Part shown: positions 29,990 through 34,266 of the stretch, piece by piece | Numbering within the stretch: position 1 is the first letter of the stretch | How the letters are laid out: each line of letters starts with the position of its first letter | DNA from: an uncultured bacterium | Lineage (GTDB): Bacteria; Poribacteria; WGA-4E; WGA-3G | Direction: 5' to 3' | DNA length: 64,000 nt | Assembly: GCA_964652195.1 (NCBI GenBank) | Contig: CAZZBB010000012.1 | Span: forward strand, 36,537 to 100,536 | Position numbers and translations under genes: made by a program | Notes under the pieces: model-generated | Database searches by the model: none | The model's input: the letters and a program-made list of their open reading frames with translations, nothing else | Told to the model about the DNA's origin: nothing

Positions 29990-30075
29990 TACCATTTCTA
30001 ATTAATTTTTGTTCCATTACCTAATGTTACTATAGTTTGGACAATTTTCGTAATTTCTTGAACAACTGTATACAT

Positions 30076-30098
30076 ACACCTTTCGCACCGCTGGTGCT
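30076..30098. repeat. 23-bp repeat ACACCTTTCGCACCGCTGGTGCT, copy 2
   Basis: Identical to copy 3 and 22 of 23 identical to copy 1. Confidence 0.7.
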
Positions 30099-30126
30099 CG
30101 GTTACTTGTGGCATTTACGTTTCTAC

Positions 30127-30149
30127 ACACCTTTCGCACCGCTGGTGCT
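30127..30149. repeat. 23-bp repeat ACACCTTTCGCACCGCTGGTGCT, copy 3
   Basis: Tandem with copy 2 at a 51-bp period. Confidence 0.7.
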
Positions 30150-30426
30150 ACGGATTTAGTCAATAGTATTCTTTTTCGGAAAGTTTCATGTTGTGGTTTA
30201 ACTCATCAATTAATAAGTTCTTATCAAACAACAGTCTGGGGAATGGTATCAAACATTAACACCCAAGCACCCGTAGTTAGGGATGTGTCTAAACATAAAG
30301 AATAGACTTACAAGTCTTTGTTTAATTCTTAAAACTGTCCAAACTATAGTATAAATTAGAACATGTCTTATAAATCATACATTTGGGATTTTTTGATCTT
30401 GTCCATGTACTCCAGATTGAAACAAC

Positions 30427-30445
30427 GGACGGGGAGACCCCGTCC
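30427..30445. repeat. GC-rich hairpin repeat GGACGGGG-AGA-CCCCGTCC followed by CTACGA
   Basis: Perfect 8-bp stem. A second copy lies at 37836-37854 (GGACGGGGAAACCCCGTCCCTACGA). Confidence 0.6.
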
Positions 30446-30601
30446 CTACGAAGAGGAATTGAATTTGTATGGTCATTTCGTATTAGTGAGATACACTGTA
30501 GTTATATCTTATTGCTGAAGTTGGATATACGTATGATGGGTTCAACGCATCCAACTGTAAGCGGAGAAACATTCGAATATCTGATTAAAACTATAGACGA
30601 T

Positions 30602-31183
30602 TTATCGATTTTCAAAGGCAGTAATGTCTGCTTCGTATTGAAGTGTCCAACCAATTTCATCGAGTCCGTTTAGTAGACAGTACTTTTCAAAGTCGCCTAT
30701 CTCAAATGTGTGGGTAGTTCCATCAGGACAAATTACCGATTGTACTTCGAGGTCAATCATCAATTGATAGCCTTCTGTGTCTTGTGCTGCTTTGCTAAGT
30801 TCTGTGATGATATCTGCTGGTAATGAGACCGGTAGGATTCCATTCTTATAGCAATTGTTGCGGAAGATGTCTGCAAAGGAGGGTGCGAGAACGGCTTTAA
30901 ATCCGTATTGCTGAAGTGCCCAGGGGGCATGTTCACGAGAACTACCGCAACCGAAGTTTATTCCAGCGATGAGAATACTGGCGTCAGCATACTTGGGTTG
31001 GTTCAATATAAAATCTGGATTTGGATCACCGTTTTCAAGATACCGCCAATCGTTAAAGAGAAATTCACCGAATCCAGTACGTTCAATTCGTTTTAGGAAT
31101 TGTTTCGGGATAATCTGATCGGTATCAACATTAATTCGGTCAAGAGGTACGACGAATCCAACATGTTCTTTAAATGCTTCCAT
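30602..31183 (-). CDS. leuD: 3-isopropylmalate dehydratase small subunit
   Basis: Shows [17 protein letters not shown] and [12 protein letters not shown]. Confidence 0.9.
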
Positions 31184-31575
31184 TATAACACCTCAATGGG
31201 TTCTTTTCGTTTCCTTTCAGTTTGATCGAAGTCTGTATCGAAACTAATGAGTTGCATCTCATATTTCGCAGCGACAGCGTATTGGTATGCATCGTCAAAG
31301 TCAAGATTGAATTTATCTGCTATGCGTTCCAACGTTTTAAGATCTTCTGGGGATAATGATAGGATGCCAACTCCGTCAACAATTATGTCCTCAAGAAACG
31401 AATTAAAAAGCGTAAAATATTTCAATCGAAACAGAATAATCCCTATAGAATGTAGGGACAGATCCGTTATGTAGATTGTGCTCAAGTCGTTAATTTGTAA
31501 GAATGATTGGACATCATCCTTTTTGTCTTGTCCCAACAAAGCTTCAAGGAAGATGTTAGTATCTGCGAGGTACAC
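31183..31575 (-). CDS. PIN-domain toxin (VapC-like)
   Basis: [12 protein letters not shown] fits the PIN N-terminal Asp motif. A GTG start at 31575 follows GGAGG and overlaps the antitoxin stop as TAGTG; the ORF track extends to 31656. Its stop overlaps the leuD start. Confidence 0.6.
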
Positions 31576-31778
31576 TATTCCCTCCAATCTGACGCTTTTT
31601 TCTGAAGTTCGAGGGCTGTAAACTGGTCTCGAAACGCTTTTAATCCACCAATCCATTCTAAGTTTGGTTTTTTCTTCCGTTTTGAACTTTTTTTTGTATG
31701 TAAGAAATCAATGAAGTGAATGACTTCTTCTTGGAGTTCCGGAGGAAGTTCCCTAATTTTTTCAATGATAGATTCCAT
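31575..31778 (-). CDS. DUF2281-like antitoxin
   Basis: 67 aa. MESIIEKIRELPPELQEEVIHFIDFLHTKK matches the DUF2281 pattern. It is translationally coupled to the downstream PIN gene. Confidence 0.55.
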   Translation of the reverse strand: MESIIEKIRELPPELQEEVIHFIDFLHTKKSSKRKKKPNLEWIGGLKAFRDQFTALELQKKASDWRE

Positions 31779-31817
31779 TGTTGTCTCCGTATTTTTCAGG
31801 GTAGAGTGGACACAGGT

Positions 31818-31845
31818 ATTTTAAGCAAGCCTTTGACTTATCCAA
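31818..31845 (-). promoter_or_regulatory. Candidate sigma70-type promoter for the toxin-antitoxin pair
   Basis: Minus strand reads TTGGAT, 16 bp, TAAAAT, with GGAG 8 nt before the antitoxin ATG. The -35 box overlaps the leuC stop. Confidence 0.3.
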
Positions 31846-33957: not shown

Positions 33958-34266
33958 CTATAAATCCATTTTTAGTTGCTTTAGCATCTCAATTACTTCA
34001 TCTGCTACAAGGATATACAAACTCTTAGGATCAAACAGATAGTTTTTGAACAACAACCAACATATCTTTGACCAAGGGAGATCTGTGCTAAAGAAGCGTT
34101 GTATCGTGCGATAGCTACCTCCTTTTGATGTCCCCCGTGAGATATTTAACATGGTGACTTGACCAGTCATCGCAAGCAGTGCAAATACAACTTGGCATAA
34201 CTGGTGGATCATAGTAGTGGATAGACATGGATTAAGTACAGTAATTAATGCTATAATTCCTGGCAT
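33958..34266 (-). pseudogene. Possible DDE transposase N-terminal fragment (IS4/IS701-like)
   Basis: 102 aa. RGTSKGGSYRTIQRFFS...YILVADEVIE resembles the N-terminal region and first catalytic D stretch of IS4/IS701-type transposases. It is truncated. Recall-based. Confidence 0.3.

Follow-up and report, generated by a model that had tools for sequence, protein, structure and literature searches.

A putative VapC/DUF2281 toxin-antitoxin cassette in the polymorphic leuC-leuD spacer of Poribacteria

The leuC and leuD genes of an uncultured poribacterium, which code for the two subunits of 3-isopropylmalate dehydratase, are separated by two small genes, coding for a DUF2281-family protein and for a VapC-type PIN-domain protein. 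The pair resides in a 64,000-nt stretch of contig CAZZBB010000012.1 (assembly GCA_964652195.1), hereafter called the window, and has been analyzed there and in the corresponding loci of other genomes. The two genes probably make a type II toxin-antitoxin (TA) cassette, expressed by read-through from the leu genes, which behaves as a selfish and addictive element and persists between leuC and leuD in a clade of sponge-associated Poribacteria. The cassette is an ordinary member of the VapC/DUF2281 type II family; its setting, within a biosynthetic operon, is unusual. This interpretation draws on the identities of the genes, the fold of the PIN protein, the gene junctions, the polymorphism of the site among relatives, the purifying selection acting on the cassette and the pattern of its deletions. 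In the literature searched, neither this poribacterial locus nor any TA pair placed in a leuC-leuD spacer was found to be described.

Both flanking genes exceed the equivalog cutoffs of their families. LeuC matches TIGR00170 with 788.7 bits (cutoff 560, E 1.5e-237) and Pfam Aconitase with E 7e-183; LeuD matches TIGR00171 with 272.8 bits (cutoff 116, E 1.5e-81) and Pfam Aconitase_C with E 1e-38. The two genes lie on one strand, with leuC ahead of leuD, in the arrangement of a leuCD operon (Table 1). The genes in between have the layout of type II TA pairs, being small, adjacent and co-oriented, with overlapping stop and start codons. The antitoxin stop codon (TAG, 31577-31575) and the GTG start of the PIN gene (31575-31573) have the G in common, and the TAGTG junction so formed is found in 12 of 12 intact loci. 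A Shine-Dalgarno site, GGAGGG (31585-31580), is located 4 nt ahead of the GTG, a start which agrees with homologues beginning MYLADTN, from an ATG, at the same position. At the opposite end, the PIN stop codon (TAA, 31185-31183) and the leuD ATG (31183-31181) share an A, and the leuD Shine-Dalgarno site, 5 nt before the ATG, is part of the final PIN codons. The starts of the antitoxin, PIN and leuD are each preceded by a Shine-Dalgarno site. The original prediction of a DUF2281-antitoxin/PIN-toxin module between leuC and leuD, with a TAGTG overlap, a GTG start after GGAGG and a PIN stop overlapping the leuD start, agrees with these junctions, as with the family matches, fold and acidic residues described below. 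A longer PIN reading frame of 157 aa, starting at an ATG at 31656, was rejected; its N-terminal extension overlaps the antitoxin gene and is not conserved. No paralogue of the cassette was found within the 64-kb window.

Table 1. Features of the leuC-leuD locus (window positions) and spacer deletions in relatives (positions of the L024 spacer)
Feature	Position	Strand	Content or basis
leuC, 3-isopropylmalate dehydratase large subunit, 466 aa	31838-33238	-	TIGR00170, Pfam Aconitase
leuC-antitoxin spacer, 59 nt	31779-31837	-	contains antitoxin Shine-Dalgarno GGAG, 31788-31785
DUF2281-family antitoxin, 67 aa	31575-31778	-	Pfam PF10047
VapC-type PIN-domain toxin (predicted), 130 aa, GTG start	31183-31575	-	Pfam PIN, AF2, Foldseek
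PIN/leuD junction, GAGGTG (31194-31189) and TAATG (31185-31181)	31181-31194	-	sequence
leuD, 3-isopropylmalate dehydratase small subunit, 193 aa	30602-31183	-	TIGR00171, Pfam Aconitase_C
terminator-like GC-rich hairpin, about 155 nt past the leuD stop	30427-30445	-	8-bp stem, 7 GC pairs
L011 deletion	330-709
L015 deletion	278-734
L017 deletion	about 304-725
L021 deletion	about 278-740
L022 deletion	374-556
L068 deletion	305-600
L010 deletion	19-641
L009 deletion	about 12-732

The PIN open reading frame (ORF) matches Pfam PF01850 over positions 1-119 of the 120 of the profile (E 1e-14, 55.6 bits, cutoff 23.6). It remains below the cutoff of the NCBIfam model TIGR00028 (Mtu_PIN_fam VapC; 18 bits vs 73.6), and belongs to the broader PIN/VapC class, outside this subfamily; an identical protein is named VapC toxin family PIN domain ribonuclease at NCBI. 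The AlphaFold2 (AF2) model of the protein (pLDDT 93.8) displays the alpha/beta/alpha fold and resembles solved VapC/FitB toxins. FitB, Klebsiella pneumoniae VapC, PAE2754, Mycobacterium tuberculosis VapC20 and Shigella VapC were the best Foldseek matches in the PDB, all of them PIN toxins solved in TA complexes, at probability 1.00 and TM scores of 0.64-0.80 (0.73-0.80 for the top FitB/VapC hits). The metal-binding acidic positions canonical in PIN domains, taken for comparison, are located at about D4, E/D40, D93 and D112. Residues D5, D38, D92, D94, D95, D113 and D117 are invariant across 26 homologues of the PIN protein, which are 67-89% identical. A PDB search with the single sequence gave no match, and the homologue profile alone reached an archaeal VapC, 1w8i, to whose acidic residues D5, D95 and D113 align. 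D38 is the probable counterpart of the second acidic residue in the canonical set. When the profile was aligned by hhalign to an approximate Shigella VapC sequence, the N-terminal DTN motif alone aligned. The lack of conserved acidic residues had been named beforehand as an argument against a PIN toxin; on alignment such residues are present, with D38 as the probable second of the set. The protein is a predicted Mg2+-dependent endoribonuclease, which would inhibit growth.

The companion protein matches PF10047 (DUF2281) over positions 2-64 of 64 (E 9.6e-18, 65 bits, cutoff 26.5). The score against the NCBIfam model NF050009 (TA_VapB) is below cutoff (37.9 bits vs 60), and the match is limited to the N-terminal 35 residues. 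An AF2 model obtained from the single sequence features three helices and a linker rich in Lys and Arg; at a pLDDT of 65 the model is indicative only, and too low for a fold search. A PDB search with the single sequence gave no match and no solved relative of DUF2281, and no DNA-binding domain was detected by Pfam, by the same PDB search or in the low-confidence AF2 model. Pairing of the two genes, and retention of the antitoxin in all decayed loci, suggest that the DUF2281 protein neutralises its cognate PIN.

The cassette alone adds little to the VapC/DUF2281 family, of which other pairs, one of them validated, have been described. In a marine pair, VapC is toxic in E. coli and is neutralised by its DUF2281 partner (PMC12654330); the order of the genes is inverted with respect to the window. 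Predicted DUF2281-PIN pairs also occur in Synechocystis (ssl0385/sll0205 and ssl2138/sll1092; PMC4963859). Like VapC/DUF2281 systems, the window cassette combines a PIN toxin of about 130 aa with a DUF2281 partner of some 67 aa. It also has in common with them the antitoxin gene in first position, the 1-nt overlap, the VapC/FitB-like fold and acidic residues that are conserved. It differs in being located between subunit genes of one enzyme, in showing no promoter or operator recognisable as belonging to it, and in that the essential gene downstream starts within the toxin stop codon. The PIN protein is similar in size, domain architecture and fold to the toxins of FitAB from Neisseria gonorrhoeae and of classical VapBC systems (Shigella/Salmonella, M. 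tuberculosis VapC20), but sequence identity is as low as 11-20%. The antitoxins of all these systems bind DNA through ribbon-helix-helix, AbrB or similar domains and control the promoter from which they are themselves expressed, whereas DUF2281 has no detectable domain of this kind.

Loci of relatives were collected by a scan anchored on LeuD, taking one genome per species. About 45 poribacterial loci, denoted here by L numbers, were obtained in addition to outgroups; each was re-annotated by tblastn and ORF listing, and the spacers were read. The counts refer to 33 species, in which leuC is adjacent and LeuD is at least 82% identical to that of the window. TA-derived genes mark the leuC-leuD spacer in 22/33. 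An intact DUF2281-PIN cassette is found in 11 species, and an unrelated HicB/HicA cassette in 3. In 8 species PIN has been deleted or shortened, and the antitoxin remains, whole or as a fragment. Spacers are TA-free, and measure 21-292 nt, in the other 11 species, one of which carries the L010 scar discussed below. Among decayed loci, L011, L017, L021 and L039 retain the antitoxin without PIN, L022 has an in-frame deletion of 61 codons within PIN, and PIN is reduced to a 3' fragment in L068; the antitoxin is frameshifted in L015, and a fragment of it remains in L004. HicB plus HicA reside in L013 and L016, HicB alone in L008 (both families were confirmed by Pfam). In L012, PIN is followed by a 130-aa ORF similar to dnstrm_HI1420 antidotes (spacer positions 674-1066), whose ATG overlaps the PIN stop and which shares the GAGGTG; it corresponds to an orphan antitoxin of the RelE/HigB type. 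Since the site captured elsewhere a HicBA cassette and a HI1420-type antidote gene, the leuC-leuD spacer is, as judged from its sequences, a polymorphic TA hotspot throughout a clade of Poribacteria. The original prediction viewed the cassette as an insertion; the cassette is there, yet it is not private to the window genome, and represents one state of a polymorphism shared by the clade.

The HicBA cassettes of sister Poribacteria are found at the same site and in the same orientation, with the antitoxin first, as the VapC/DUF2281 cassette. The families are unrelated, HicA being an mRNA interferase and HicB its antitoxin, and the HicBA cassette is absent from the window. In L032 the spacer is empty, and its 21 nt correspond to the sequence flanking the HicBA loci (L013, L016, L008) on the 3' side. 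TA-free spacers do not look uniformly ancestral. Those of L020, L028 and L030 have in common an element of about 60 nt, duplicated in L020, and GC-rich hairpin repeats are found in L025 and L034, which suggests that small mobile repeats insert in the spacer as well.

The exact PIN protein of the window was identified also in two sequencing runs and in the metagenome-assembled genome (MAG) Candidatus Poribacteria MSPOR6 (GCA_003635315.1), each time in the order leuC-DUF2281-PIN-leuD. MSPOR6 is the closest genome, but distinct from that of the window, because the sequence past leuD differs. There (L001, 7219-12206), MSPOR6 carries genes for DruA/DUF4096, NurA, a DUF87 (HerA-like) ATPase and a further PIN protein. 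This set, which the window lacks, is similar to a defence cluster. Additional intact cassettes occur in metagenomes from the European Nucleotide Archive (ENA) and the Joint Genome Institute (JGI). The arrangement is found in more than 20 independent assemblies, complete chromosomes included, and is therefore not an artefact. It is highly improbable that the cassette is a product of a chimeric contig, or an inactive relic. Many relatives do carry decayed versions, and the genomes are metagenome-assembled, as either possibility would have it; but neither window ORF is truncated and both retain their start signals, low ratios of nonsynonymous to synonymous substitutions (dN/dS about 0.1), invariant catalytic-type residues and a confident AF2 model point to a functional toxin, and the same or nearly the same arrangement recurs in closed long-read chromosomes and separate sequencing runs.

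Outside this set of species the spacer changes. In more distant Poribacteria it is short and empty, or leuC and leuD lie apart. In L035-L043, which belong to more GC-rich Poribacteria (LeuD 73-77% identical), leuC is not found within 4 kb upstream of leuD, and an oxidoreductase-like gene precedes leuD in L036; some members of the phylum therefore have leuC and leuD at separate places. A scan of JGI metagenomes with LeuD, which yielded only three poribacterial loci, served to sample outgroups broadly. In 105 non-poribacterial loci no TA genes lie between leuC and leuD, and the gap measures 134 nt in the median (25th percentile 17.5 nt), in line with the earlier statement that the two genes are normally contiguous. 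Spacers of 247-389 nt in Burkholderiales and other betaproteobacteria (L064, L076, L078-L080, L105, L110, L116, L158, L171) contain an ORF of about 40 aa for an Entericidin EcnA/B lipoprotein (Pfam E 1e-9). As in Poribacteria, a small accessory gene resides lineage-wide in the leuC-leuD spacer; the 40-aa lipoprotein is unrelated, and no PIN/antitoxin pair is involved.

Intact copies of the cassette are under purifying selection. In a comparison of 12 intact loci, PIN has a dN/dS of 0.107 and the antitoxin one of 0.130; the values for the flanking leuC and leuD are 0.036 and 0.033. When the cassette decays, it does so in one direction. Deletions were mapped on the L024 spacer, in which the antitoxin spans positions 78-284 and PIN positions 284-676 (Table 1). 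Those in L011, L015, L017, L021, L022, L068 and L010 all remove toxin sequence, and are independent because their endpoints differ; L009 could represent an eighth deletion, or an ancestral empty site. A toxin retained without its antitoxin was found in no locus among those surveyed. The HicBA series decays in the same direction, as L008 has HicB and lacks HicA. Loss of the toxin first is the order expected of an active toxin and a protective antitoxin. The PIN toxin is taken as active because of the dN/dS of about 0.1, and because deletions all strike the toxin. Orphan antitoxins are intact ORFs with a dN/dS of about 0.14, a value which includes the history before orphaning, so that present constraint is not proven. 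It had been stated in advance that an ancestral arrangement in related genomes, devoid of toxin activity, would speak against a TA module; the arrangement is indeed old and clade-wide, yet the evidence favours toxin activity.

The junction of the cassette with leuD varies. The 1-nt TAATG overlap of the window is found also in L005, L014, L019 and L023. PIN and leuD are separated by about 15-22 nt with AGGAGAAAA in L088 and L091, and by about 65-75 nt with GAAGGAGAA of their own in L006, L018, L024, L027 and L029; L012 and L026 have larger spacers with extra inserts, and spacers of this type measure 207 and 451 nt. The overlap can be derived from the 75-nt form through a deletion between two ATGs. 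L010 carries a scar. Its 51-nt spacer is made by the first 18 nt past leuC and the last 34 nt of PIN, and ends with GAGGTGTTATA-ATG; the PIN end includes GAGGTGTTATAATG and the leuD ribosome-binding site. The cassette is gone, but the piece of PIN which would drive leuD translation has been kept. Overlaps and ribosome-binding sites are consistent with translational coupling from the antitoxin through PIN to LeuD.

How the cassette is transcribed was examined in the sequence. The original prediction named a candidate sigma-70 promoter overlapping the leuC stop, and the string is present, TTGGAT (31845-31840) and TAAAAT (31823-31818) being spaced by 16 nt, with the -35-like hexamer overlapping the leuC stop and the -10-like hexamer within the 59-nt spacer. 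Its status as a promoter is, in contrast, unsupported. The string agrees with the sigma-70 consensus at 8 of 12 positions, the -35 hexamer contributing 3 out of 6, and the consensus may not be the poribacterial one; a promoter scan with a threshold of at least 9/12 did not call it, and at that threshold 6.8 sites arise in the region when the sequence is shuffled. Even when a lax rule is applied, the site is absent from the nearest relative, being seen in the window genome alone. As a poor match, uncalled by the scan and not conserved, it was rejected as evidence of a promoter. In 8 of 12 intact loci no sigma-70-like site was found, at a lax threshold, in the last 150 nt before the leuC stop and in the spacer. 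No operator-like palindrome was found in the 59-nt leuC-antitoxin spacer, and no Rfam family matched between 29500 and 34500 at E up to 1, denoting the absence of a leader, riboswitch or known small RNA. Neither conserved sigma-70-like site, nor palindrome, nor antitoxin DNA-binding domain thus hints at an autoregulated promoter and operator of the cassette. One weak terminator-like match lies in PIN, no more than in shuffled sequence. Read-through from leuC is more likely than an internal promoter, and is the most economical solution, because leuD must be expressed with leuC and the cassette is apparently promoter-less. It agrees with the original prediction, in which leuD may be co-transcribed with the toxin. 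The leuC-antitoxin-PIN-leuD transcript would probably end at the hairpin past leuD, which is a consensus match only, with a weak T-tail.

Taken together, these features can be arranged in one scheme. The PIN protein, a VapC-like endoribonuclease, would cut a tRNA or rRNA target and arrest growth, and the small helical DUF2281 protein would bind and block it. The cassette, likely lacking its own promoter, would owe its transcription to read-through and be part of the leuC-leuD mRNA; translation would run as a chain from the antitoxin to PIN and on to LeuD, the ribosome-binding site for the last being inside the final PIN codons. It would have been gained early in the clade at a permissive intra-operon site, and selection would keep it intact in about a third of the species. 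On decay the toxin would go first every time, and even full deletion would have to spare the 3' end that drives leuD translation.

The same observations have been weighed against a role in regulation. The cassette might have been co-opted to tie growth control to leucine biosynthesis. Placed on the leu mRNA and chained to leuD, toxin and antitoxin would be made in step with the leu operon, so that upon leucine limitation the labile antitoxin falls, and the PIN RNase slows growth or tunes the LeuC:LeuD ratio. Such domestication appears unlikely. A translational chain to leuD is conserved across several lineages, but the widely varying 3' junction argues against tuned coupling. Purifying selection over deep divergence and the intactness of orphan antitoxins fit a useful gene pair; sister species without the cassette, or with remnants of it, have intact leuC and leuD, and the cassette is hence dispensable for leucine synthesis. 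Two unrelated TA families occupy the same spacer, which would favour a regulator, and yet close homologues (69-73% identity) reside in unrelated contexts, and no leucine-related feature was found in the sequences.

A function in defence, as an abortive-infection module against phages placed at leuCD incidentally, is equally improbable. Sponge symbionts are reported to be enriched in TA and defence genes (PMC5649159); the DruA, NurA, HerA-like and PIN genes just past leuD in MSPOR6, and a 72%-identical pair beside a MmeI-type restriction-modification gene, also fit this view. The window locus, however, lies outside a defence island, its neighbours being housekeeping genes or genes of unknown function, and no PADLOC defence model was matched. 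A defence function is compatible with a selfish cassette, as the parts are the same and the benefit is another; sequence alone cannot separate the two.

The history of the cassette was traced by comparing trees. The tree of the cassette is broadly congruent with that of leuC plus leuD, in which the cassette is scattered over the whole clade; early acquisition and many later losses fit this picture. PIN homologues at least 77% identical are all located at the leuCD site, those 69-73% identical reside in other contexts, and the 72%-identical pair is found between the MmeI-type restriction-modification gene and a PLD/helicase gene. The 5' spacer comes in at least three sequence types, combined in mosaic fashion with the types of the 3' junction. 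Between the window and MSPOR6, the synonymous divergence (dS) is 0.037 for PIN, and 0.22-0.31 for leuC, leuD and the antitoxin.

Several points weigh against a selfish TA cassette inherited with the leu operon and expressed from it. In 64/66 pairs the cassette has diverged less than its flanks at four-fold degenerate sites (median 0.316 vs 0.54-0.56), and a single ancient insertion followed by vertical descent does not explain this reduction. Poribacterial promoters may differ from the sigma-70 consensus, so that the lack of a match does not prove the lack of an internal promoter, and homologous cassettes at other places in poribacterial genomes (L084, L093) must have promoters of their own. 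D38 is assigned as the second canonical acidic residue by position and invariance, and is not exactly aligned with solved VapCs. Intact orphan antitoxins could act beyond neutralising a lost toxin. Finally, the RNase activity and its target, neutralisation, co-transcription, coupling and addiction dynamics are elements of the scheme that we infer.

The low divergence, the mosaicism and the replacement by HicBA would all be accounted for if species had exchanged the spacer by recombination, leuC and leuD serving as homology arms. Synonymous constraint or base composition (GC content at third codon positions 0.37-0.40 vs 0.46) offers an alternative for the low synonymous divergence. One may go further, and regard the spacer as a landing pad, where promoter-less, unrelated TA cassettes (VapC/DUF2281, HicBA, an HI1420-type antidote) are swapped between species by homologous recombination, expressed from leu and chained to leuD translation, with toxin activation tied to leucine starvation. 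This is a rather doubtful extension; if true, the synonymous divergence of the cassette, about half that of its flanks, would be a trace of inter-species spread, and the TA genes would be operon-embedded and nutrient-wired instead of free-standing and autoregulated.

TA genes associated with host transcription units have been described in other bacteria. In E. coli, mazEF is located downstream of relA, and its TA genes are co-transcribed with a housekeeping gene. Similarly, TA pairs of Synechocystis are found inside multi-gene transcription units (PMC4963859). The window cassette resembles both in that its TA genes would ride a host transcription unit. The mazEF and Synechocystis genes reside at the end of operons or beside them; the window cassette, in contrast, separates two subunit genes, the second of which has its ribosome-binding site within the cassette. 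The interest of the locus lies in this natural experiment, as one site in an essential biosynthetic operon can be compared over about 35 species. The series spans intact cassettes, at least seven independent toxin-first deletions, orphan antitoxins, replacement by another TA and a scar which preserves a ribosome-binding site. It provides direct comparative evidence for the expected decay path of addictive modules, where loss begins with the toxin and in no case with the antitoxin, for a host gene growing dependent on the sequence of a selfish element, and for the persistence of TA cassettes that seem to lack their own promoter. The locus is also a simple system for asking whether operon-embedded TAs follow the regulation of the host operon.

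In the window, just past leuD and within 29990-30600, a 28-nt inverted repeat (30028-30055 and 30324-30351), 86% complementary and with arms 268 nt apart, frames a non-coding stretch of low GC content (34-36%), similar to miniature inverted-repeat transposable elements. An exact 23-nt direct repeat is found at 30076 and 30127. About 700 nt upstream of leuC, a 102-aa ORF on the minus strand (33958-34266) codes for a transposase fragment, whose match to DDE_5 (E 3e-8) is confined to the first quarter, at the N terminus.

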